NCBI GenBank assembly: GCA_963796685.1
Contig: CAWCMR010000013.1
Location: 128,001 to 192,000, forward strand
Source: an uncultured delta proteobacterium
GTDB lineage: Bacteria; Myxococcota_A; Polyangia; Fen-1088
Direction of reading: 5' to 3'
Length of the DNA: 64,000 nucleotides
The number at the start of each line of letters is the position of its first letter. Position 1 is the first letter of the stretch. The notes below the pieces were generated by a model that saw only the letters and a program-made list of their open reading frames with translations, had not been told where the DNA came from and did no database searches. Shown in pieces: positions 28,979 to 40,135 of the stretch. Both the position numbers and the translations under genes were made by a program.

Positions 28979-30254
28979 TTAATCCATCGCCTGCCGCACG
29001 CGCGCTTCCAGCTCGTCGACGGCGATCTCCGACTGCTGGCGCGTGGTCAGGTCGCGCAGGATGAGCTTGCCCGAGAGGATCTCGTTGTCGCCCACGATGA
29101 GGGCCAGACGCGCGCGCAGGGCGTCCGCGCGCTTGAGCTGCGCCTTGAGGCCGGCGTCGCGGTGCTCGATCTCGGTGCGGATGCCGGCAAGGCGCAAGCG
29201 GTGGGCGACGGGCAGGGCGAAGGTACGCGCCTTGTCGCCCAGGGCCGCGATGTAGAGGGTGAGGCCGGAGTCGAAGCTTTCCGCGGGCGCGGTCATGGCG
29301 AGGAGCAGCCGCTCCACGCCCAGGCCGAAGCCCATGGCCGGGACCTCGGGGCCGCCCAGGGACGACACCAGGCGATCGTAGCGGCCGCCACCGCACACGG
29401 TGTTCTGCGCACCCAGGTCGCCGACCTTGGCTTTGAGCTCGAAGATCGTGCCGGTGTAATAGTCGAGCCCACGCACGAGTCGCGGATCCAGGCGGCTCTC
29501 CACGCCCAGCGAGGCGAGGTGGCTTTGCACGGCCTCGAAGTGTTGCTTGGATGCGTCGCCGAGCACGTCGAGCAGGATGGGGGCCTGGGCGGCCAGGGCC
29601 TGTACGTCGGGATCCTTCGAATCGAGAATGCGCAGCGGGTTGGTGTCGAGCCGCTTGCGCGAAAACTCGTCGAGCTTGTCGGCGTGGGTCGTGAAGAAGG
29701 TACGCAAGGTCTCGCGGTAGGCCGTGCGCTCGTCGGGCGAGCCCAGGCTGTTGACCGCGACCTCAAGGTCGGAGGTCTTGATGCCGAGGTCGGCGAGCAG
29801 GGCGACGAGCATGGCGATCATTTCGGCGTCGATGGCCGGGCCAGGCAGCCCGAAGACCTCGGCGCCAATCTGGTGGAACTGGCGCAGTCGCCCGCGCTGG
29901 GCGCGCTCGTGGCGGAACATCGGGCCCATGTAGTACCAGCGCGTGACCGGCTCGCGGTTCCACTGCGAGCGCGAGATGTAGGCGCGGACCGCCGAGGCCG
30001 TCCCTTCGGGCCGCATGCTGACGCTGCTGCCGTCGCGGTCATCGAAGGTGTACATCTGCTTTTCCACCACCTCGGTGGCTTCGCCGACCGAGCGGGTGAA
30101 GAGCGGCGTGTACTCGAGGATGGGCGTGCGCAACTCGCGGTAGGCGAAGGCGTCGAGAAGGGTGCGCGCCTTCTCCTCGACGAATTGCCACTTCGCCACC
30201 TCGGGGGGCAGCACGTCGTTCATTCCTTTGACGTTCGGCGGGGAGCTCGTTCAC
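28979..30254 (-). CDS. hisS: Histidyl-tRNA synthetase (probable start GTG 30254 with an apparent +1 indel near 30243)
   Basis: KGMNDVLP, MRPEGTAS, MFRHERAQRGRLRQFHQ, LVRGLDYY, GGGRYD, GFGLGVERL. Confidence 0.95.
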
Positions 30255-30275
30255 GGCGGCTTTATAGCATCTCCT

Positions 30276-31025
30276 CTATTCCACGCGAACCACGGCGGCG
30301 CCAAGGCCAGCGACGACTTGTTCGCAGGCCCGAAGGACCGTGGCTTCGCCGCGACCGTCCAGGGTGATGAGCACCTTGTGGTCGACGGCATCGATGTGCG
30401 GGTAGGAACCGATGGCGACGTCAGGGAAGTCGGCCGCGGCTCGGTCGAGAACGTGGGCGATGGCGCCCTCGCCCTCGCGCGAATAGATGGCGCGACTGAA
30501 GAAGGGCGGGGCGGCGAAGCGATCGCGAATCATGGCGAACTTGCGCTGCATGATCGATGGCACACCGGGCAGGACGTAGACATTGCGATAGGCAACCACG
30601 GGCCAGCACGAATGGGAGACGCCTTCGCCGTAGATGAGGTTGGCGCCTTCGGGCACGTCGGCCATGCGCAGATCGCGCTCGAAGAAATGCTCCCCGCTGT
30701 AGGCGCGAATCATTTCGGCCAGGGCCGGGTCACGCACCACCGGCACCGAGAAGGCCGCGGCGATGGAGGCGATGGTCACGTCGTCGTGCGTGGGGCCGAT
30801 GCCCCCCGTGGTGAAGACCAAGTCGTAGGTTGCGGACAAGGCACGCACCGTGGCCGCGATTTCCGCCGGAACATCGGGAACGACCTCGATCCGGCGCACG
30901 GCCACGCCCAGCTTGCGCAGCTCGCGCACCAGAAACCGCGCGTTCTGCTCCTCGACTTTGCCGGAAAGAACCTCGTCGCCAATCACGACGATGGCGGCGG
31001 TGGGGCCTTGTCTGCTTTCACCCAT
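30276..31025 (-). CDS. CinA-like / molybdopterin-binding (MoCF-biosynthesis-fold) protein
   Basis: IGDEVLSG, TTGGIGPTHDDVT, LPGVP and IGSYP motifs. Confidence 0.85.
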   Translation of the reverse strand: MGESRQGPTAAIVVIGDEVLSGKVEEQNARFLVRELRKLGVAVRRIEVVPDVPAEIAATVRALSATYDLVFTTGGIGPTHDDVTIASIAAAFSVPVVRDPALAEMIRAYSGEHFFERDLRMADVPEGANLIYGEGVSHSCWPVVAYRNVYVLPGVPSIMQRKFAMIRDRFAAPPFFSRAIYSREGEGAIAHVLDRAAADFPDVAIGSYPHIDAVDHKVLITLDGRGEATVLRACEQVVAGLGAAVVRVE

Positions 31026-31061
31026 GGTTTGGGCGCAACCATACCGGGATTTGCGTGTCGT

Positions 31062-34000
31062 TCAAAACACCTCGGTCCAGGAAAAGCGGGTGAAGGCACC
31101 AGTGCCTCCATTGGGCGGGATGGCCCGTCCGGCCGTGACAGAATCCGGCACCAGGTTGGTAATCTCGATGGCCCCGCTTGAGCCGAACAGGTAGATGCGG
31201 CCTCCTAGAATTACCGGGGATGTGACGGGTTCGCTTGCCACGTCGGCACCTAACCGCTGCGTTACGCTACCAGTGGCCGACATTTGGTGGATAGTGAAAT
31301 AGGTCTGCCCTCTCGTGCAGCCGTCTACCGCAGGCACGTACCACATGGTCATGACCTGGAACCCGGACGCGTCCGCCAAGAGCACTCCGAGCGGGGTCGA
31401 TGTTGGTCGCGCATTCAGGGGCATGGAGGTCTGACACGTCACGTGGCCGTTCGAGTCGGTCTGCGTGACGCCACAGATCTCGCTGTCATTGCCCACGGTG
31501 AGCGTGATCATCCCGCCATTGCCCCAGGTCGTGTCCTTGACGATGCTAATAAATTTGCCGTTTGCGTCGGTTTGGGCGGTCTCTTTCCAGAAGATCATCT
31601 TGGACGGTGGCAACGCAGTGGTGTCGAGGTCGAGGTTGGAATTGGTCACTTGCACGGGGAAGATTTGGTGTCCGAACGCGGTGGTTGTCGAGTCTCGGTC
31701 AAGTTGAACGATGGTCGGGGAGAAGTGCAGGGGATGGTTGCAGGTTAGATTCTGGTCGAGGGTGAGTCCGGCGCCGAAGGCATAGCGGAAAAGCTGCCCC
31801 GACGTGTCGCCGAAATAGCCGGCCACGAGCTTGTCGTCCTGGCCCGTGGCGAAATCGCGGGCGGTGGCGACGTCGGTGAGCGCGGTGTACTCTTGCGTGC
31901 AGGTGGCGGTGGGAGCGATTGGGTCGGTCGTCAGAAGATTGCCTGAGGCGGCCGAGGCGGTCACCAGCGCTCGTCCTTGCGTGGTGCTGCCGCTTGTCAC
32001 CGGATAACCGGAGGCAAAGGTGACGCGATAGTCGTCCAGGCTGCTCGTCCTGTTGAGGAAGAAGGCGGGAAGGGAGATGGTGTTGCCGAGCGCGTTGCCG
32101 TAGGCGGAGGCACTGGCTCCATATCCGGTGTGCCACTGTACGGTGACAGGTGGGTCTGCGACGCCGGTGGGGCTGAATGGCGCCGACACGTCGAGCATGA
32201 AGGTGTTGGCGCCCCCATAGCCCTCGGGCATGATGAGCAGGGTCTTCCACACGGCGTTGGCAGCATCGCTGCAGTTCGTTACACACAGGGTCTTTGCCTT
32301 GGGTGAGTCTGCGAGGCCGAAAATGTGACTGTATGGGTCGGGTTTTTGTCCGCCCTGCGAGTACTGTTGGCGCACGATGGGCATCATGTCCGGTGGCAGA
32401 AAAGCGAAGGCTTCGCTCCCGGCCTGGTACAGCGTCGACCCGATGGTCGTGTCTTGCAGGAAGAACGCATGCAGGAGTCCGTCCGACGAACCCACATAGA
32501 TGAGGTGGGGGCGATTCTCGTATTTCAAGAAGTACTCATGTCCACCGGGTTCCGGCACGTCGCCCGGGCTCGCGATGTCGATGGGCGTCGAGTTGATGAT
32601 TGCCCCCAGGATGGACGGATTCTTGTAGGTTGGATCGCCTAGCAACCAGCGTGCGACGGATTCGGCCTCGATGTCCGACGCACCGAGGCCCATGGCGGCC
32701 AGCGTGGTCTTGTTGGTCACGGCATGGGTCGTGGGATCCACCGCGATCTTCACCATGTTTGTGCCATCCCACGTGTAGATCTTGCGCTGCCACCAATTCA
32801 TGGCCGTGAGCTTCTGGTAGGCGTCCCAAGACAGGACTGGCGAGGCGCCACTCAAATCGTAGGCCAAGAGATGGCCTTTCCATTCCGGAAAGTCCATACG
32901 CGAGTCGAGGGCATACTTGCCTTCGGCGACCGTGGTGGCCTGTTGCGTACCGGCCGAGGTGCTGGTGGGCGCGGTCGAGTAGCTGCCCTTGACCGCGTTG
33001 TAGATCACAAGCTGCAGGGCGGTGTTGAGGTCGTTCTCATTCTGGGCGAGGTAGGCGAAGGGGGCGACGCCGTCGTTGCCGGCATCCGTCCCCCCCGCCC
33101 GTGCGATATTGTCGTTGGTGGTCTTCGCCGTTCCCGAGCTGGTGTCGCCCGAAAAGCCCACCACGAAGGTCTTGACGCCGAGGTTTTGGCGCAGGTTGTA
33201 CGCGGCCAGGACCGCCCGGCAGGTACAACCTGCGGCGGCCGGATTCGTGGCCGCGCAGCCCGACGCGGAGCAGTTGCCGTCTCCTGGGCCATTGGCTTCG
33301 CCATCGGTGATGAGCAGAACATAGTTGTCGCGGCAAGCGAGGTGATCCTGCGGGACTCCCGCGCTCGAGTTGCCATTCTTCACCGCGTTCATGTAATCGT
33401 AGGCACTGGTGTTGATGGTTGGGGCCTTATCGTTCTGCAGCGTGCACCCGGTTGGCGTGCCCCAGTAGAAGATCAACCCGCCGTTGGCGGCTGGGGCCAT
33501 CGCTTGCGTGATGGCGGCGGCTGCAGTCTGCGAAACCGTCAGGTCGTCCGTCGTGCTGAGAAATGGAGCGAGCTGCGCATCCCAGCGCCCGCCACAGTCC
33601 GCGTCGCACGTGTTGCCACAGCCTGGAAAATCGAGTGGAGGTGCTTTGCCGCCGTTGTAGTAGTTGTTGAGCGGCTGGTAGTAACTGTAGTTCTTTCCGC
33701 CCACCGTGATGTTCTGCCCGCCATAGGTGGGTTGCGTGATCATGGTCGTCGAGTTGCTGCCGACGGTGCCCGTGTACTGATAGTAGGCGCCTTCGAATTG
33801 TCCCAACCCCACGGCGCCGGGCATGTCGCAGGTGCTTCCGCACCAATTGGCGTCGACTTCGATCCATGCGTTGGAATTGGAGCGTACGCGGTAGCGGCTG
33901 TTCGTCGAATCCTGCAGGGTCATGCTGATGCCGTTGAACGTACAGGCTTGAGCAGGTCCCGTGGCCTTGTCGAAGCAGTGCGCGGAGACGATCTTGTCTC

Positions 34001-36059
34001 CGGATTCGTAGACCGTGATGACCCCGGTGGAGCCCGATGTGCTCAGGTAGTAGGGGAAGTAGCCATTCTGGTAATAGGTCATCAGGCCAAAGTTCAAGAG
34101 CTTGTAGTTGTTGTTCACGACCCCACTGATCGCACGCTTGGCGATGACTGCGCGCGAGGTCGCCGGCCCACAGGCATCTCCGGCGGAGGTGCAGTCCGAG
34201 TCCTTCTTGCACACGGTCTGCGCAATCAGACACATGCGGATGGGGCCTGGCGTACCGTTGCTGCTTGGAACACAGGTGTCCGTGCTGCTCACGGGAAGGA
34301 CGCAAGGATTGGGTGGCGGGATGACGCAGATGTTCGTCGGCGCGCTACAGGTGTTCGTCACCGCCGTGCAGCTGTTGTCGGTCTTGGTCACGCACGTGTC
34401 TTGCGCCAGGTTGCAGATGTTGGCGGTGCCGTTGCACGTCTGGGCTGCGAAGACACAGGTTTGTGGACTGGAACACTTCATATAGCTGTTGTTGCACTTG
34501 TTGCCATTGCCGGAACAGGTACCGTAGGACGGTACAGGGCAGTCGGTGTCGATGCGGCAAGTTTCGCCTGTGGCGCTGCAGGTCATGTAGCTGGGGCAAT
34601 CGGTGCTTCCGGTGCAGCCATTCCTCGGGGTGCCCCCCAAACTACAGGTTCCGGTGGTCGCCGCCGGCGGGCAATCCGATGGCGATGAACAGGGCGTGGA
34701 GGTCGAGTGAGCGCACACATTGGCAGTCGGGCAGTTTCCGCCCGGGTTGGTGCAGGACATTTGGTTGTTGTATTTGCACTGTCCCAGCGAGGGACATGGG
34801 GTGTGGTCGTCGCAGGCCACGCCGGTGGTCGAGCAGCGGCTGGATTGTGACGGGCAATCCGAGTCCTTCGAGCAGTTGGTCTTGGAAGAAGCGCAAATCG
34901 TGTCGAGCGATGTCTGGGTACCGGTTCCGCTCTGGGTGTCGGTAGCCGTTTGGGTTCTGGTCGAGGTCTGGGTCCTGGTCGAGGTTTGGGTGCCGGTCGA
35001 GGTCTGGGTGGCAGTGGAAGTCTTGGTGGAGGTCGAGGTCTGGGCGCCCGAGAAGGTCCAGGTCTCGATGCGCGTGCCGGTGGCCGTGCCTGACTTGGTG
35101 GCAGTGGCGGGGACGATGTTCCACCAGACCAAGGAGTTGGTGGTCGTCCGAGCACGACTGGGCATGTAGACCGTGGCAATCCCGGTGGAGATGGCCGTGC
35201 CACTGACGGTCCCGGTCGCGGCGGAGAAGGTTTTCGTAACCGAGCCATTGTAGGTGGCGGTCACGTTGCTGGTGGCGATGGCACTCGCCCCGCCTGCGAT
35301 GTAGTCGGTCGTGGTGTATGTGTTCGTATACCACTCGGTATCCTCGGTATCGGAGGCCGTGTTCGTGCTGGTGATGGTGCCTGTGAGCGTCACGGTCGCT
35401 GTGGCCGTCGCTCTTTGAGTCGACGTGCCGGTATTGGTCACCGTCTGGGTGTTGGTCACGGTTTGGGTGTTGGTTACGGTCTGGGTGTTGGTCAGGGTCT
35501 GGGTGTCGGTCACGGTCTGCGTGTTGCTGATGGTCTGCGTACTCGTCGTGGTCTGCGTATTGGTCGTGGTCTGCGTGCAGCTCATGATGGGGACGGAGCA
35601 GACGCCGGGATCCTGCGGACAATCGTTGATGGACGCGCACTGGGTGGCACCATCCTCCTGGCAATAACCGTGGCGGCAGTCGTCATCCGATTGACAAGTT
35701 CTGCCCCACGCCTTGCACACCCCGAGCACCCCTCCGTTGCGGCAGTTGGAACCATTGTCGCAGTCCACCCCCACCTCGGTCGAGTTGGCGAACTGACCGC
35801 CGGGCACGCCGGTCATCGACCCGGAAGTGTCGAGCACGATGAGCATGTTGGCCTTGTGCAGTTGCCGCTCGATCACGACCAACGGGTTCACGCGGGCGAA
35901 GGAAGGGCGCGACGCCATGCAAGACCAGCTCACCAGCGCGACCACCATGGACGCAGCTGACAGGCGAGGTCGGCGCACCCCACGCAGCGTGCGTCTGCCG
36001 ACCCTGTTGCCTTGAGACTGTTTCACCCTTGTGTTCATCGACCGAAACCCGCTTCTCAT
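31062..36059 (-). CDS. pilY1: PilY1-like type IV pilus tip adhesin: split vWA domain with nested Cys-rich and Thr-rich insertion, plus C-terminal PilY1 beta-propeller
   Basis: Signal peptide; MIDAS IVLDTSGSM, later FGLMTY, GTPT, LLITDG, KTFVVGF; propeller motifs WKGHLLAY, LGAIINSTP, YVGSSDGLLHAF, EAFAFLP, GDTSGQLFR. The start may be a downstream Met. Confidence 0.75.
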   Translation of the reverse strand: MRSGFRSMNTRVKQSQGNRVGRRTLRGVRRPRLSAASMVVALVSWSCMASRPSFARVNPLVVIERQLHKANMLIVLDTSGSMTGVPGGQFANSTEVGVDCDNGSNCRNGGVLGVCKAWGRTCQSDDDCRHGYCQEDGATQCASINDCPQDPGVCSVPIMSCTQTTTNTQTTTSTQTISNTQTVTDTQTLTNTQTVTNTQTVTNTQTVTNTGTSTQRATATATVTLTGTITSTNTASDTEDTEWYTNTYTTTDYIAGGASAIATSNVTATYNGSVTKTFSAATGTVSGTAISTGIATVYMPSRARTTTNSLVWWNIVPATATKSGTATGTRIETWTFSGAQTSTSTKTSTATQTSTGTQTSTRTQTSTRTQTATDTQSGTGTQTSLDTICASSKTNCSKDSDCPSQSSRCSTTGVACDDHTPCPSLGQCKYNNQMSCTNPGGNCPTANVCAHSTSTPCSSPSDCPPAATTGTCSLGGTPRNGCTGSTDCPSYMTCSATGETCRIDTDCPVPSYGTCSGNGNKCNNSYMKCSSPQTCVFAAQTCNGTANICNLAQDTCVTKTDNSCTAVTNTCSAPTNICVIPPPNPCVLPVSSTDTCVPSSNGTPGPIRMCLIAQTVCKKDSDCTSAGDACGPATSRAVIAKRAISGVVNNNYKLLNFGLMTYYQNGYFPYYLSTSGSTGVITVYESGDKIVSAHCFDKATGPAQACTFNGISMTLQDSTNSRYRVRSNSNAWIEVDANWCGSTCDMPGAVGLGQFEGAYYQYTGTVGSNSTTMITQPTYGGQNITVGGKNYSYYQPLNNYYNGGKAPPLDFPGCGNTCDADCGGRWDAQLAPFLSTTDDLTVSQTAAAAITQAMAPAANGGLIFYWGTPTGCTLQNDKAPTINTSAYDYMNAVKNGNSSAGVPQDHLACRDNYVLLITDGEANGPGDGNCSASGCAATNPAAAGCTCRAVLAAYNLRQNLGVKTFVVGFSGDTSSGTAKTTNDNIARAGGTDAGNDGVAPFAYLAQNENDLNTALQLVIYNAVKGSYSTAPTSTSAGTQQATTVAEGKYALDSRMDFPEWKGHLLAYDLSGASPVLSWDAYQKLTAMNWWQRKIYTWDGTNMVKIAVDPTTHAVTNKTTLAAMGLGASDIEAESVARWLLGDPTYKNPSILGAIINSTPIDIASPGDVPEPGGHEYFLKYENRPHLIYVGSSDGLLHAFFLQDTTIGSTLYQAGSEAFAFLPPDMMPIVRQQYSQGGQKPDPYSHIFGLADSPKAKTLCVTNCSDAANAVWKTLLIMPEGYGGANTFMLDVSAPFSPTGVADPPVTVQWHTGYGASASAYGNALGNTISLPAFFLNRTSSLDDYRVTFASGYPVTSGSTTQGRALVTASAASGNLLTTDPIAPTATCTQEYTALTDVATARDFATGQDDKLVAGYFGDTSGQLFRYAFGAGLTLDQNLTCNHPLHFSPTIVQLDRDSTTTAFGHQIFPVQVTNSNLDLDTTALPPSKMIFWKETAQTDANGKFISIVKDTTWGNGGMITLTVGNDSEICGVTQTDSNGHVTCQTSMPLNARPTSTPLGVLLADASGFQVMTMWYVPAVDGCTRGQTYFTIHQMSATGSVTQRLGADVASEPVTSPVILGGRIYLFGSSGAIEITNLVPDSVTAGRAIPPNGGTGAFTRFSWTEVF
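34893..35579 (-). repeat. Intragenic 18-nt repeats encoding two arms of eight TQTxTx hexapeptides around a ~130-aa spacer
   Basis: TQTTTN TQTTTS TQTISN TQTVTD TQTLTN TQTVTN x3 ... AQTSTS TKTSTA TQTSTG TQTSTR x2 TQTATD TQSGTG TQTSLD, bracketed by Cys. Confidence 0.9.
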
Positions 36060-36106: not shown

Positions 36107-36170
36107 ATGAATAGTTTACACTATATAATATGTATTCTATATTACAATATAATGAGTACTATAAAGTCAT
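36107..36170. promoter_or_regulatory. Very AT-rich segment upstream of pilY1-like gene (putative promoter/regulator-binding region)
   Basis: 12 G+C in 64 nt (~19%) in a strongly GC-rich context; contains TATAAT twice on the + strand and repeated TATA(T/A) words. Confidence 0.55.
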
Positions 36171-36230
36171 GCCGGGAAATCGCGGCCTTGGCGAAGGGGA
36201 CCCGGACGGTTCCAGGCCCCACGGGTCTAT

Positions 36231-36262
36231 CCAAGCAACCTTCGCGCCAAGCAACCTTCGCG
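36231..36262. repeat. Perfect 16-nt tandem duplication CCAAGCAACCTTCGCG x2
   Basis: Directly visible just downstream of the ACT-protein stop. Confidence 0.85.
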
Positions 36263-36283
36263 CCCAGCTCGGCGCGGGCCGGG

Positions 36284-36835
36284 CTACGCCTTGTGAGGCT
36301 TGGTTTCCAGCGAGGTCTCGACCAGGCGAATCTCGACCATGAGATCGCTGGCCAGGCGTTCGAGAGCGGTGCGCAGGGTAGGGAGGTCGGCGTTGCTCGG
36401 CAGGCGCACGCGCGCCTTGGCCTGGAAGAGCATCTCGCCCGACATCGGAGCGCTGGTGCGATCGGTGGACAGCTCCTCCACATTGGCGCCGCTATTGGCC
36501 AGAAGCTGCGAGATCTCGCGCACGATGCCCGGCCGATCGAGCCCGACCAGCTCGAGGGCGAGGGCGCGTCCGGACGTTGTCCCGCCAGTCTCGCCGCTCG
36601 GCTCGCCCACCACCTTGAGGCCGCGAGCGTCGAGATCGGCCAGGGCGGCCTGAAGCGACGCCGCCTTGTTGCTCGGGACCTCGATGCGTAGGATGCCGGC
36701 GAACTTCCCCGCCAGCCGGGCCATGCGGCTTTCGAGCCAGTTGCCTTCGTGCGCGGCGACGACGGCGGCCACGGCCTCGACCAGGCCGGGGCGATCGGGG
36801 CCGATCAGGGTCAGAACCAAGTCAGTCATGGCCAT
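36284..36835 (-). CDS. Double ACT-domain protein (GcvR-like)
   Basis: Two ACT motifs GPDRPGLV and GLDRPGIV, GNWLESRMARLAGKFAG, SAPMSGEMLF. Confidence 0.85.
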   Translation of the reverse strand: MAMTDLVLTLIGPDRPGLVEAVAAVVAAHEGNWLESRMARLAGKFAGILRIEVPSNKAASLQAALADLDARGLKVVGEPSGETGGTTSGRALALELVGLDRPGIVREISQLLANSGANVEELSTDRTSAPMSGEMLFQAKARVRLPSNADLPTLRTALERLASDLMVEIRLVETSLETKPHKA

Positions 36836-36839
36836 GGTC

Positions 36840-37316
36840 TCAGACACGCAAGTGGAGGGGATAGTTCTTCTCGATGGATTCGCTGCAGGCGTCGGTGACG
36901 AGCTGCCAGATGTTGCGCATCTGCGCCTCGATCACGCTGCCCTCGTCGATTTCCTCGGCGTCCTCGTCCTCGTCCTCGTCTTCGTCCTCGAATTCCTCGT
37001 CCTCGATAGCCAGCTCTTCTTTCATTTCTTCGAGTGTCTCCTGCAAGGCGTAGGCGGATGCCACCCGAAACTCGCCCACCGTCAGGGGGCCCTCGAATTC
37101 CAGTGGCAAGTAGATGTCTGCGGCCACATCGTGGGCGTCGAGCCTGTCGAGAAACTCCGTCATGGCTTCCTCGCTGAGGCGTTTGGCGAAGGTGTGCGTG
37201 GTGTGGTCATCCTGGGCCGGCAGCTTGGCGCCAGCTTGCTCGAGCAGCCGCCCAAGCGACTTCACTTCTTCATCGTCCAGTCGATCCGAGAGCGGGGCGA
37301 GTTCGATTGCCGACAT
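36840..37316 (-). CDS. Acidic hypothetical protein
   Basis: Natural-looking helical sequence with a poly-D/E tract; abuts the ACT gene. Confidence 0.7.
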   Translation of the reverse strand: MSAIELAPLSDRLDDEEVKSLGRLLEQAGAKLPAQDDHTTHTFAKRLSEEAMTEFLDRLDAHDVAADIYLPLEFEGPLTVGEFRVASAYALQETLEEMKEELAIEDEEFEDEDEDEDEDAEEIDEGSVIEAQMRNIWQLVTDACSESIEKNYPLHLRV

Positions 37317-37441
37317 GACCCATACGGTGCCGCAGCCCGGGCGCGCCGTCAACGTTGCGCGGTCTTTTTCTCCCCGCAATGGCAACGTGGTCGCCGGATT
37401 CGACATCTCATGCCTGACCAGGTATGGATGCCAGAGCGCAA

Positions 37442-40135
37442 ATGACAACGAGCTCAGGACCGGACGCGGCTTGGATACTATCACGCATGCAGTCGGCTCG
37501 CGACGCGGCCAGGCGTGGGCTTGACGAGGGCAAATCCGGGCTCGAAATCGTGGGCACCCTGACCGCGGCCGTCGAGGCCGCGATCCGTGAGGTTCTTGCC
37601 CACCATATCTTCCAGGCCGACATCGGTCCTGCCTCGGGCGTGGCGGTTCTGGCCACCGGGAGCTTCGGCCGTCGCGAGCTTGCGCCTTATTCGGACCTGG
37701 ACCTGCTCTTCTTGTGCGAGAAAGCCCCCGACAGCAAGATGGAGGCCCTGGCGCGTTCCATCCTGCTGCCGCTTTGGGATGCCAAGGTCGACGCCGGCCA
37801 TGCCGTGCGCTCCGTGGCCGATGGTCTGGGCTTGCCCGACAAGGATCTGGCCGCCGCGACGGCGTTGCTCGATGCCCGCTTCCTGGTCGGCGACGAGAGC
37901 CTTGCCCTCGACTTTCTTTCCCGCTACCAGGCTCGCGTGGCGGGGTCCAGGCCGGACGGTCTGGTGGCGCGTCTGCGCGAGGAACAAGAGTCGCGGCACT
38001 CGCGCTTCGGCGACACGATCTTCATGCTCGAACCCGACCTCAAGAGCGGGCCGGGCGGCATTCGCGATCTGTGCGTCGGACGATGGGCGGCTCAGGCACG
38101 TTTTCACGCGTCTACCCCCGCCCGACTGGAGCAGCTCGGCGAAATGTCGAGTCGCCAGGCCGAGGCCTGGGCGCAGGCCATCGACTTCATCTCGAAGTTG
38201 CGCCTGGCCTTGCACCTCGTCGCGGGGCGGAGACAGGACCAGTTGCGCTTCGACCTGCAGGAGCGGATAGCGCCCCTCTTCCATGCCGAGGGCACTTGGG
38301 CGGACGACGACAGTCGGCCGGCTGTGACCCCGGCGGTCGAGGCGTTGATGCACGACTTTCAAACCCACGCGCGGACCATCGCGCGCACCACCGAACGCCT
38401 CATGCAACGCGTGTGCGCCCAGCCCAACGAGCGTTTGGCGACTCGCCCGGTGGTGCTCTCCAAGAGCGCCCCGGGCGATCCCAGCTTCGTCCGGCGCAAG
38501 GGCAAGCTCGAAGTAAAGAGTAGCTTGATATTCGAGAAGCAGCCTTCTGAAATGATTAGGCTATTCGGCGTATCTCAGCAGGTCGATATGGGTGTCGGAC
38601 TGGCCACCTTGGACCTGATCTCCGAGCTGGCGGCAAGCCATGCCCAGGCCCTGCGCGAGGATCCGCAATCGGCCAAGCATTTCCTCGAGGTGCTGACCAA
38701 CGTGAAGGACGCCGGCACCCCCTCGCGCCTGGAGCAGATGCACGACCACGGGCTGCTCTCGGCGCTGCTGCCCGAGTGGGGACCGGTATCGGGGCGCGTG
38801 CAGCACGACATCTACCACGTGTACACGGTGGACCAGCACTCGCTCTACGCGGTGGCCACCCTGAAAGCCGTCGCGCGGGGAGAGCTTCAGAAGGACTATC
38901 CGGAGGTCTGCGAGGCGTATCCCGATGTGGTTCGGACCCGGGCGCTGTTCGTCGGCCTGCTTCTTCACGACGTGGGCAAGCCCCTGGGCTCGAACCACGC
39001 CGAGAAGGGGGCGACGATGTCCAAGCGAATCGCTGCCCAGCTGGGGCTTTCGCCCGAGGACGTCGACCTGGTCGAGTTCCTGGTCCGGGCGCACCTCGAA
39101 ATGGGGCACAACTCACAGCGGCGCGATCTGCAGGATCCGAGCTTGCTTGATTTCTTCGCTCGCACCTGTGGCGATGAAGAGAGACTGCGTCAGCTCTTCA
39201 TCTTGACCTTCTGCGATCTGACCTCGACCGGGCCGAAGACCATGACACGGTGGAAGTACGAGCTCCTGTACGAGCTCTTCGACCGCACGCTCAAGTACAT
39301 GCGCCGCGGCCCCGATCTGCTGGCCGCCGAACGCGCCGAGCTGGTGGAAGAGCGCCAGCGCCAGGCGGCGGCGCTGCTCGAGGAAGATTCGCACTCCGCG
39401 TCAGCCGTGGTGGCCTTCACCGGTTTGCCCGACCGCTATTTCGCCGAGCAGGAGGCTGACAAGATCGCCGACCACGTGCGCCTCATGCGCGGTCGAAAAT
39501 CGTGCTGCGCCTTGGAGGTCTCCCATTCCGAGCGTGGAACCTTTTCGGAATTGGTCTTGGCCGCCGATGACGTGCCCGGGCTTCTGGCCAAGGTTGCGGG
39601 CGTGCTCTACGCCAACCGCATCGATATCTTGGATGCAGCCATCTACTCGCGCGAGCCGGTCTTCCCCCTGCGCAAGCAGGGTGAGGCGCTCGACGTCTTC
39701 CGCATCCGCAAGGAGCCGGACGGCGCTCTGACCGACGAGAGCCGCATCGCGGGCATTCGGCGAGACCTGGAGGAGGTTCTGTCCGGGCGTGTTACGGTGG
39801 AATCGCTGGTGGCCAGGCGGCCGCCTCCGTCCTCGCTCTACCAACGGGCCAAGCCCAAGGTTCCGCCCACGCAGGTCAACGTCGACAACGATTCGAGCCG
39901 GACGTTCACCGTGGTCGAGGTCTTCACCGAGGACAAGCCGGGCGTGCTCTACACCATCACGCACACCCTGGCCGTGCAGGGGCTGGACATTCACCGCTCG
40001 CGTGTCGGGGTCGCCGCCGACCGGGTGGCCGACATCTTCTACGTGCGCGACACGGCCTCGGGCGAGAAGATCGAGGACGAAGAGCGTATCGAAGCCATCT
40101 CCGACGCGCTCAAGCTGGCGCTGAAGGCTAGCTAG
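37442..40135 (+). CDS. glnD: [Protein-PII] uridylyltransferase/uridylyl-removing enzyme
   Basis: NTase GSFGRRELAPYSDLDL, EPDLKSGPGGIRD, QHDIYHVYTVDQHS, HD motif LLHDVGK, two C-terminal ACT domains. Confidence 0.95.
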   Translation: MTTSSGPDAAWILSRMQSARDAARRGLDEGKSGLEIVGTLTAAVEAAIREVLAHHIFQADIGPASGVAVLATGSFGRRELAPYSDLDLLFLCEKAPDSKMEALARSILLPLWDAKVDAGHAVRSVADGLGLPDKDLAAATALLDARFLVGDESLALDFLSRYQARVAGSRPDGLVARLREEQESRHSRFGDTIFMLEPDLKSGPGGIRDLCVGRWAAQARFHASTPARLEQLGEMSSRQAEAWAQAIDFISKLRLALHLVAGRRQDQLRFDLQERIAPLFHAEGTWADDDSRPAVTPAVEALMHDFQTHARTIARTTERLMQRVCAQPNERLATRPVVLSKSAPGDPSFVRRKGKLEVKSSLIFEKQPSEMIRLFGVSQQVDMGVGLATLDLISELAASHAQALREDPQSAKHFLEVLTNVKDAGTPSRLEQMHDHGLLSALLPEWGPVSGRVQHDIYHVYTVDQHSLYAVATLKAVARGELQKDYPEVCEAYPDVVRTRALFVGLLLHDVGKPLGSNHAEKGATMSKRIAAQLGLSPEDVDLVEFLVRAHLEMGHNSQRRDLQDPSLLDFFARTCGDEERLRQLFILTFCDLTSTGPKTMTRWKYELLYELFDRTLKYMRRGPDLLAAERAELVEERQRQAAALLEEDSHSASAVVAFTGLPDRYFAEQEADKIADHVRLMRGRKSCCALEVSHSERGTFSELVLAADDVPGLLAKVAGVLYANRIDILDAAIYSREPVFPLRKQGEALDVFRIRKEPDGALTDESRIAGIRRDLEEVLSGRVTVESLVARRPPPSSLYQRAKPKVPPTQVNVDNDSSRTFTVVEVFTEDKPGVLYTITHTLAVQGLDIHRSRVGVAADRVADIFYVRDTASGEKIEDEERIEAISDALKLALKAS

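Follow-up and report, generated by a model that had tools for sequence, protein, structure and literature searches.

Co-varying threonine-rich arms flank a knob domain in an insert of a PilY1-like protein from an uncultured Polyangia bacterium

The 64,000-nucleotide stretch of DNA analysed here (positions 128,001 to 192,000 of contig CAWCMR010000013.1, from an uncultured bacterium of the Polyangia; hereafter the window) carries on its minus strand, at 31062..36059, a gene for a protein of 1665 amino acids (aa), which was delimited from its open reading frame (ORF) and translation and is assignable, by the homology of its propeller, to the PilY1/PilC family. The protein has a signal-peptide-like N-terminus, a motif of the MIDAS (metal ion-dependent adhesion site) type, a Cys-rich region and a C-terminal PilY1-type beta-propeller region. 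We concentrate on a Thr-rich insert within the Cys-rich region, in which two repeat-built arms flank a conserved domain, designated the knob. The lengths of the two arms change together among natural variants, both in this protein and in other proteins of the same genus.

The insert is an arm-knob-arm module of 229 aa that extends from Cys161 to Cys389 (34893..35579, minus strand, like all features of the gene given below), as delimited from the translation and the Cys positions. The two boundary cysteines (35577..35579 on the N side, 34893..34895 on the C side) are a proposed clamp, which they would form through a disulfide. Between them lie an N-arm of 61 aa (residues 162-222; 35394..35576), a knob of 114 aa with a conserved Thr-rich strand framework (residues 223-336; 35052..35393; E=2.9e-44 with a hidden Markov model, HMM, of the knob) and a C-arm of 52 aa (residues 337-388; 34896..35051), the arms being bounded by the Cys and knob HMM landmarks. 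A first-pass annotation of this DNA had described a Cys-bracketed Thr-rich feature at 34893-35579, free of internal Cys, in which eight plus eight hexapeptides surround a spacer of about 130 aa with the motifs EWY, VWW and TWTF. The feature is present, but on the minus strand, and neither this strand nor the PilY1-family host was named in that annotation; the plus-strand reading of the same interval, a Gly/Arg-rich frame interrupted by a stop, was rejected as an artefact. Zero Cys are found within the 229 aa from Cys to Cys, the spacer between the two hexad blocks measures 129 aa and contains all three aromatic motifs, and both blocks are there, although three hexads of the C-terminal one are degenerate.

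The eight N-terminal hexads, of the form TQTxT[N/S/D], make up the first 48 residues of the N-arm (35433-35576) and read TQTTTN, TQTTTS, TQTISN, TQTVTD, TQTLTN and three times TQTVTN. Those of the C-arm (residues 339-386; 34902-35045) read AQTSTS, TKTSTA, TQTSTG, twice TQTSTR, TQTATD, TQSGTG and TQTSLD, the first, second and seventh being degenerate. At the DNA level, Tandem Repeats Finder detected two 18-nt arrays, of 8.2 copies with 82% matches at 35430-35577 and of 7.8 copies with 69% matches at 34908-35048. Thr accounts for 86 of the 229 residues of the insert (38%) versus 10.8% elsewhere in the protein, and pairs of Thr at positions i and i+2 number 62, compared to 31.9 +/- 3.5 in composition-preserving shuffles, none of which reached 62 in 5000 trials; both the enrichment and the pairing exceed chance. 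The Thr fraction is 0.51 in the N-arm and 0.42 in the C-arm, and neither arm contains Pro or a switch of Thr phase. One sequencing run, with a 0.16 share of words, gave a single 209-nt contig, which lies inside the knob and is identical to the window.

Comparable loci were fetched via a conserved segment upstream of the insert, 13 from species genomes and 31 from metagenomes. Among the 39 with an anchored ORF, the knob was found in 18; 3 were Thr-rich and ended before the knob, 17 were not Thr-rich and 1 was too short. Arms were measured with the boundary Cys and the knob HMM as landmarks, and the 24 ORFs with a knob yielded 20 complete inserts and 18 distinct sequences, once P0015 (N-terminus missing), L024 (no boundary landmark), L018 (cut) and L013 (broken frame) had been dropped. 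Eleven distinct pairs of N- and C-arm lengths were observed: 61/52 (window), 79/70, 113/111, 124/121, 130/125, 154/149, 155/148, 165/160, 167/160, 190/187 and 197/172. Uncorrelated arm lengths in homologues, which the first-pass annotation had named as an argument against its own proposal, are the opposite of what these 18 inserts display (Pearson r=0.989, slope 0.96). The N-arm exceeds the C-arm by 2-9 residues in 17 of the 18, and by 25 in L017.

Since kinship makes these sequences non-independent, independent contrasts were computed on trees built from the flanks only. The correlation through the origin was again 0.989 (17 contrasts, 11 non-zero, 10 of these 11 with the same sign); it was 0.97 without the largest contrast, and 0 of 20000 permutations reached the observed value. 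Two comparisons illustrate the scale of the changes. The nearest relatives of the window insert (61/52), L014 and L016, measure 155/148, so that both arms have shifted by 94-96 residues on a short branch. Between the window and L001, each arm differs by exactly 18 residues, that is, three hexads, and in the DNA alignment both arms have a 54-nt gap at the end nearest the Cys, a placement that is ambiguous within repeats. The N-arm of L017 is made of a 90-nt higher-order repeat (30-aa units, 5.9 copies, 73% matches); we considered that the mismatch of this insert might be a recent uncompensated expansion, but its repeat array does not show this.

The insert was gained once. Homologues are typically about 1400 aa long, and a Thr-rich region of at least 50 aa is found in 5 of the best 120 (P0013, P0014, P0015, P0016 and P0017); P0007, which is 81% identical over residues 640-1665, is without the insert. 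On the flank tree, the 18 insert-bearing genes form one clade with 99% support in the Shimodaira-Hasegawa-like approximate likelihood ratio test, all 18 members of that clade have the insert, and one state change suffices to explain the distribution, so the gain is confined to one subclade. Cys were counted between two conserved landmarks: 22 homologues without the insert have 6, spaced 6, 5, 6, 6, 5, 5, whereas 17 with it have 8, spaced 6, insert, 6, 5, 6, 6, 5, 5. Four further insert-bearing homologues have additional stray Cys within the insert, and 4 other rows gave odd counts (broken ORF, landmark misfires) and were uninformative. The insert therefore brought exactly two Cys with it, in agreement with the extra Cys pair described in the first-pass annotation.

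Individual inserts have additional cysteines. P0013 has two in loop 1 of its knob, L001 has a pair within the knob, and the N-arm contains two in L015 and a single one in L002; the paired ones, in P0013, L001 and L015, suggest local disulfides. The PilY1 reading frame is broken inside the knob in L013, where one TGA is present in that genome, and shortly past the insert in L001. These breaks may be assembly errors, or the genes may be pseudogenes.

The knob is the conserved part of the module. Alignment of 19 distinct knobs revealed a common framework comprising VTITGTITSTNTA, TTTDY, VTATYNGTVTK-FTATGTVTGT, ATVY and PATVT...ETWTY. It is interrupted by two hypervariable, indel-rich loops, delimited in this alignment by entropy, indels and Trp/Tyr enrichment: loop 1 (residues 236-248; 35316..35354), which includes EWY, and loop 2 (residues 302-316; 35112..35156), which includes VWW. 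What had first been described as an aromatic knob is thus a conserved domain with aromatic hypervariable loops. A conserved framework with variable aromatic loops is the pattern of a binding head, and judged by this pattern the knob would have a binding role. A phmmer search of the knob against 1.84 billion representative sequences returned one 103-aa fragment at E<=0.001, and composition filters and 50% clustering may hide relatives in such a search.

The same module is found in other proteins of the genus. Searched over all ORFs of the window's own genome, the knob HMM recovered the window gene only; searched over other genomes, it matched in 7 of 12 of the same genus, in addition to the own genome, and in 0 of 76 across 18 other genera of the family. 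Weaker matches in other large ORFs correspond to a paralogous knob, located close to the N-terminal end of proteins whose signal peptides are lipobox-like, and also flanked by two alternating-Thr tracts. A model of the paralogue matches the window knob (E=5.9e-9) and two other PilY1 knobs, hence the two knob types are homologous. It matched in 4 of 12 other genomes of the genus, besides the own genome, and in 0 of 400 other genomes sampled across the phylum. The proteins that carry it vary: one combines SpvB, FG-GAP and RHS-repeat domains, others have receptor-L/leucine-rich-repeat domains, or Cys-rich regions alone. The presence of the module on Rhs-type and lectin-like proteins suggests a common targeting or display role in the genus.

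The tracts of the paralogues were delimited by a density-based measure, which reproduces the Cys-defined PilY1 arms mostly within 6 residues, and within 16 at worst. In 8 modules, 7 of them distinct, the lengths were 83/73, 92/91, 159/149, 155/143, 125/125, 42/37 (two orthologues) and 43/39 (r=0.996). These paralogues have no bracketing Cys. Arm matching is thus a property of the module, independent of PilY1 and of a Cys clamp. Moreover, an N-terminal, linear spacer-head-spacer layout gives no reason for equal tracts, so that the matching in the paralogues argues for pairing of the arms. The central claim, that the two arms must change together, is in our view now supported by 18 + 8 natural variants. 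A selectively neutral expansion of low complexity, with no structural role, would gain from the ease with which repeat arrays grow and from the restriction of the module to one genus; we give it next to no credence, since the length matching survives phylogenetic correction, the knob framework is conserved, the insert is kept in all 18 members of its clade and the module recurs in other surface proteins.

Three ORFs of the window's own genome, all outside the window, are related to this module. The first, at L063:797-9844 (minus strand, contig C5), is a 3015-aa ORF with a short N-terminal arm-knob-arm module (tracts 42/37), followed by a 'WAFCDNFETGNG' lectin-like region, Cys-rich repeats and then SpvB, FG-GAP and RHS-repeat domains; this is an Rhs/Tc-like polymorphic-toxin architecture that bears the module. 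A second paralogue, at L058:730-2199 (minus strand; contig C5, region 270707-271054), is a 490-aa frame with a lipobox-like signal and tracts of 43/39, in which no Pfam domain was found. The third, at L064:155-2542 (minus strand, contig C9), encodes 795 aa. Its N-terminus is a long stretch of alternating Thr, no knob could be detected in it, and a Laminin_G_3 match just below the cut-off (26.1 versus 27.6 bits) and then Cys-rich repeats follow; the N-terminal region may be a degenerate or a different version of the module.

The composition of the arms is strand-like. In the 36 arms of the 18 distinct PilY1 inserts, Pro makes up 18 of 4888 residues (0.4%), compared to 87 of 1436 (6.1%) elsewhere in the window protein, while Thr makes up 2322 of 4888 (47.5%). 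A single period-2 Thr phase runs from end to end in 33 of the 36, with variable intervening residues, mainly Asn, Gln, Gly, Ser and Ala; the longest arm that keeps its phase is a 197-residue arm of L017, with 97 Thr in one phase and 6 in the other. The arms also come in two flavours, one of each per module. In all 18 PilY1 inserts, the Asn share of non-Thr sites is 0.08-0.45 in the N-arm versus 0-0.08 in the C-arm, and small residues are commoner in the C-arm in 16 of the 18; this order is inverted in 7 of the 8 paralogues, where the C-arm is the one of Asn type.

When positions are counted from the boundary Cys, all 18 inserts have the Thr of the N-arm in one phase and those of the C-arm in the opposite one. 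With the Cys placed directly opposite each other (offset 0), 189 of 2387 possible pairs are Thr-Thr, versus about 900 at odd offsets; an all-Thr face thus requires a one-residue stagger at the clamp, otherwise there is none. The two-stranded ribbon with one all-Thr face that had initially been proposed therefore stands as regards its strand-like features, and falls as regards the face unless the clamp is staggered. Two subclades differ in Thr parity, in both arms at once; this is a compensated flip, though it amounts to one or two independent events only.

The Thr array might itself be the functional surface, for ice (the idea raised in the first-pass annotation), ordered water, or a mineral or polysaccharide lattice, with the knob secondary. 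A staggered ribbon with Thr at i and i+2 would give a two-column ladder with spacings like those of the TxT face of beta-solenoid antifreeze proteins. Known TxT ice-binding faces, though, lie on solenoids that are flat and rigid, whereas a ribbon of two strands should twist, and no all-Thr face is formed when the Cys are directly opposite. The three-fold variation of arm length among close relatives suits a spacer better than a tuned face, and the conserved element with hypervariable loops is the knob; we therefore judge a functional Thr surface highly improbable.

With 5 sequences, AlphaFold2 gave a mean predicted local distance difference test (pLDDT) score of 40 and long strands at 30-52 paired with 185-207; with 18 sequences, the mean pLDDT was 53.5, the predicted TM-score 0.34, and continuous strands extended over 3-75 and 159-228 around the knob. 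The region between the long strands reached block-mean pLDDT values of 60-82. Strands assigned by DSSP require a hydrogen-bonded partner, for which the other arm is the sole candidate, so that the model amounts to a two-stranded ribbon of about 70 residues that enters the knob. This is weak backing for arm pairing. It agrees with the paired strands of the 48-residue ribbon claimed initially, but the length was probably underestimated, as the predicted strands have 70-73 residues each and continue into the knob. When the N-arm and the C-arm were predicted as a complex of separate chains, the score was 0.02 and the mark 0.32, with controls that did not fold either, a result that speaks neither for nor against pairing. 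ESM Atlas searches with the insert and with the paralogue module returned no usable match.

Taken together, we consider it fairly probable that the insert is a variable-length, two-stranded β-ribbon stalk that presents a binding head. According to this proposal, a single copying event would have brought a genus-restricted arm-knob-arm module into a PilY1-family protein, in its Cys-rich N-terminal half. The arms would be strands with Thr at every second position, antiparallel and paired with each other into a long beta-ribbon, which would continue into the first and last strands of the knob. The two Cys borne by the insert would close the base of the ribbon, within the Cys-knotted PilY1 region, and the knob, a small all-beta domain of about 115 aa, would sit at the far end, with its two Trp/Tyr-rich loops as the likely ligand surface. 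Slippage of the 18-nt and higher-order repeats would alter one arm, and selection would then favour a corresponding change in its partner. Taking 3.3-3.4 Angstrom per residue, the arms alone would give a stalk of about 17-20 nm in the window and about 57-66 nm in the longest relatives; should the strands have the 70-73 residues seen in the model, the window stalk would measure about 24 nm. With both legs bearing load in parallel, such a stalk could act as a tether without hidden length, which would suit a retracting pilus.

Several observations weigh against this proposal. The AlphaFold2 arms have pLDDT values of only 30-50. Foldseek gave a best E of 7.5e-3 with TM at most 0.18, its weak matches being long-hairpin proteins, and VIA a best Z of 3.8 (a toxin channel stem), with small Ig-like sandwiches at Z of about 3 for the knob; neither search gave a match strong enough to name a fold. 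If the boundary Cys face each other without a stagger, one arm has its Thr on one face and the other arm on the other. The paralogous modules have no bracketing Cys. Over 25 registers and two anchors, no signal of charge complementarity between the arms was found, charged residues being too few. A ribbon that is polar on both faces lacks a hydrophobic core and may not be stable on its own, and the 25-residue mismatch of L017 (197/172) is a departure from matching. Display at the pilus tip, for its part, would follow from family membership. Here the EF-hand-like calcium-site motif Dx(D/N)xDGxxD was found, even in relaxed form, neither in the window protein nor in 7 homologues; this motif is not universal in the PilY1 family, so that its absence weakens membership rather than excludes it. 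There is no linkage to minor pilins either, as the 15 N_methyl ORFs of the genome and its single PilX_N match all lie on other contigs. Finally, the length matching could also be explained by two unpaired tethers that share load.

This last explanation takes the arms to be extended and possibly O-glycosylated, a mucin-like double leash whose legs are equal because they have common end points and share load and reach. It draws on the Thr content (2322 of 4888 arm residues), Thr tracts being classic targets of O-glycosylation, and on the low AlphaFold2 confidence in the arms; the mismatch in L017 would reflect some tolerated slack, and pilus retraction forces would favour equal contour length. 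Such tethers, however, would have no use for one Thr phase of period 2 maintained across as many as 197 residues. The lengths match within 2-9 residues in 17 of 18 inserts, Pro is nearly absent (0.4%), unlike in Pro/Thr linkers, the parity flip is compensated between the arms, and the lipoprotein-type paralogues are also matched, though their tracts would be in series. Together these findings argue against unpaired tethers, which we regard as unlikely while leaving them a real chance.

The arms might also pair between molecules, as cross-beta or amyloid-like zippers or as a multi-hairpin barrel that clusters the adhesin. Barrel-forming hairpins (the channel stem of anthrax protective antigen, lysenin and the iota-Ib pores) are among the weak structural matches, and Thr-rich regions of fungal Als adhesins have been reported to form amyloid-like clusters. 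Yet pairing between molecules does not call for equal arms within one molecule, polar residues (Asn, Gln, Gly, Ser) fill the positions between the Thr, which leaves no membrane-facing stripe, and PilY1 is taken to be present as a single copy at the pilus tip; we take this arrangement to be very unlikely. The intramolecular β-ribbon stalk remains our preferred reading. We consider the finding real and more than a linker, and its structural reading a prediction of moderate confidence.

How does such a stalk compare with known systems? In streptococcal antigen I/II, the A and P regions run paired over their length and carry the head at the apex. These are two different repeat regions that flank a variable head (V) and together form the stalk (PMC6586375). 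The present module resembles this arrangement in having two repeat regions around a variable head, as an architectural analogue only: the arms of antigen I/II are an Ala-rich alpha-helix and a Pro-rich polyproline-II helix, whereas those of the window alternate Thr, are free of Pro and have no sequence relation to them, and the module is an insertion in another adhesin as well as a portable N-terminal unit. In Periscope proteins, changes in repeat number set the projection of the binding domain, and the stalks are single-pass tandem arrays of folded domains (PMC8201768). The arms described here likewise vary three-fold in repeat number among close relatives, with a presumed effect on projection. 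Their units of 6 aa (18 nt) or, in L017, 30 aa are not folded domains, and a two-legged stalk needs each change of length to be matched in the second arm, unlike the Periscope stalks. We conclude that the module is a member of neither the antigen I/II nor the Periscope class.

Beta-solenoid TxT antifreeze proteins have coil repeats of about 12 or more residues, a disulfide or hydrophobic core, and a flat face. They and their ice-nucleation counterparts share with the module the presence of Thr at i and i+2 on strands. The module has no solenoid coil repeat, no Cys in the arms (in the window) and no hydrophobic core, and its Thr run along two long strands, a hairpin in the AlphaFold2 model, and not across many short ones. 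Glycosylated Ser/Thr-rich linkers are similarly rich in hydroxy amino acids, built of repeats and used as surface spacers of variable length, but unlike mucin-like, Pro/Thr, serine-rich-repeat and Ser-Asp linkers, the module is nearly free of Pro, keeps a strict period of 2 and has matched arms around a folded domain. The hairpins of beta-pore formers (aerolysin, MACPF and binary-toxin stems) differ by an alternation of hydrophobic and polar residues that the module does not have, and the fold matches to them are weak (VIA Z 2.4-3.8, Foldseek E at least 7.5e-3). Searches of the literature, within the parts of the sources that were available, found no Thr-alternating two-stranded stalk.

Setting the reach of an adhesin by a stalk of variable length is a known device of bacteria, and antigen I/II already provides an example of a hairpin stalk. 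If the stalk proposed here does consist of a single, very long beta-hairpin, it would be a new structural solution, and the gene would offer a clean natural case in which two of its repeat arrays compensate each other's changes in length. In the biology of type IV pili, it would mean that a tip adhesin can bear a long, tunable extension with its own binding head; a rod adjustable through the copy number of its hexapeptides would also be of use in protein design. Natural variants already available, with arms of 52 to 197 residues, make the proposal directly testable. In its most complete form, to which we give somewhat less than an even chance, the proposal is that of a free-standing, Thr-striped, two-stranded beta-ribbon of 17-65 nm, a rod with neither hydrophobic core nor solved precedent, which would evolve by compensated two-leg slippage; the genus would have placed this portable 'hairpin periscope' on lipoproteins and an Rhs-type toxin-like protein as well as on a pilus-tip adhesin.

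The family assignment of the host protein rests on its homologues. A search with residues 640-1665 found 176 proteins at E<=0.001 among 8000 scored candidates; PF05567 is present in many of the best 120 of these, and the few that are named carry PilY1/PilC labels or originate from Polyangia or 'Deltaproteobacteria' metagenome-assembled genomes. Over this segment, identity with the window protein is 70% for P0020 and 71% for P0018. When six homologues were scanned for PF05567, P0018 (35.0 bits), P0071 (34.6) and P0085 (39.7) scored above the cut-off, P0019 (24.3) and P0033 (26.4) below it, and P0007 gave no match. A profile built from 11 members of the family, the window protein among them, had a sole match in the PDB, 3hx6, the C-terminal domain of P. 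aeruginosa PilY1 (E=2.7e-9); the PilY1 propeller is seven-bladed. The window protein by itself gave no significant match to Pfam (PF05567 included) or NCBIfam, whether searched whole, as the insert or in four pieces, and no meaningful phmmer match in the PDB. The propeller core spans approximately residues 1150-1440 (31740..32612), coordinates that are approximate, as they were offset from P0018, in which PF05567 covers residues 892-1180 at 35 bits; profile positions 895-1179 match 3hx6. At the other end, the DxSxS, MIDAS-type motif DTSGS (residues 77-81; 35817..35831), found by regular expression, is kept in 7 of 7 homologues checked, and a Pfam VWA_CoxE match is marginal (12.7 bits, E=0.088, cut-off 26.4); in von Willebrand A domains, the MIDAS has the form DxSxS...T...D and belongs to a Rossmann-like fold. 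The C-terminal motif F/Y-x-R-x-x-W-x-E-V/L is kept in most homologues checked.

Among the features of PilY1/PilC are a gene in an operon with the minor pilins fimU-pilV-pilW-pilX and a tip location achieved by docking of a C-terminal strand on PilX. The neighbours of the window gene are housekeeping genes, for HisRS, a CinA-like protein and GlnD. According to a 2026 survey of myxobacterial PilY1, Myxococcota have pilY1 genes that are unlinked to minor pilins, some clades have long, Cys-rich proteins with a von Willebrand factor A domain (vWFA) and a beta-propeller, the N-terminal part is the outermost pilus tip, and the highest median Cys count of a clade is 41 (PMC13190605). The window protein shares with these a homologous propeller, an N-terminal DxSxS motif, many Cys and the lack of minor-pilin linkage. 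It differs from them in its total of 65 Cys, against that top clade median of 41, and in having no calcium-site motif. The main text of the survey contains zero occurrences of 'threonine', 'Thr-rich' or 'repeat', and a Thr-rich arm-knob-arm insert goes unmentioned there (PMC13190605).

The Cys-rich region that houses the insert covers residues ~100-630 (34170..35762), with a Cys every 6-8 residues as judged from the Cys positions. Over the same interval, the spacing is near-regular at 5-8 residues and D-C-P motifs are repeated; no repeat family of Pfam or NCBIfam matched this region. A second PilY1-like gene is present in the same genome, at L046:8328-14417 (minus strand, contig C25). It encodes 2029 aa with a PF05567 match of 31 bits, and no recognisable minor pilins are adjacent to it, two N_methyl ORFs lying about 8 kb away. 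In the window, GC skew rises to 0.09-0.15 and GC content falls to about 0.62 over the PilY1 gene (30001-36000), which fits the ACC-rich coding of Thr on the minus strand. Divergent from this gene, at 36107-37445 on the plus strand, lie two ORFs of 194 and 259 aa without Pfam match.

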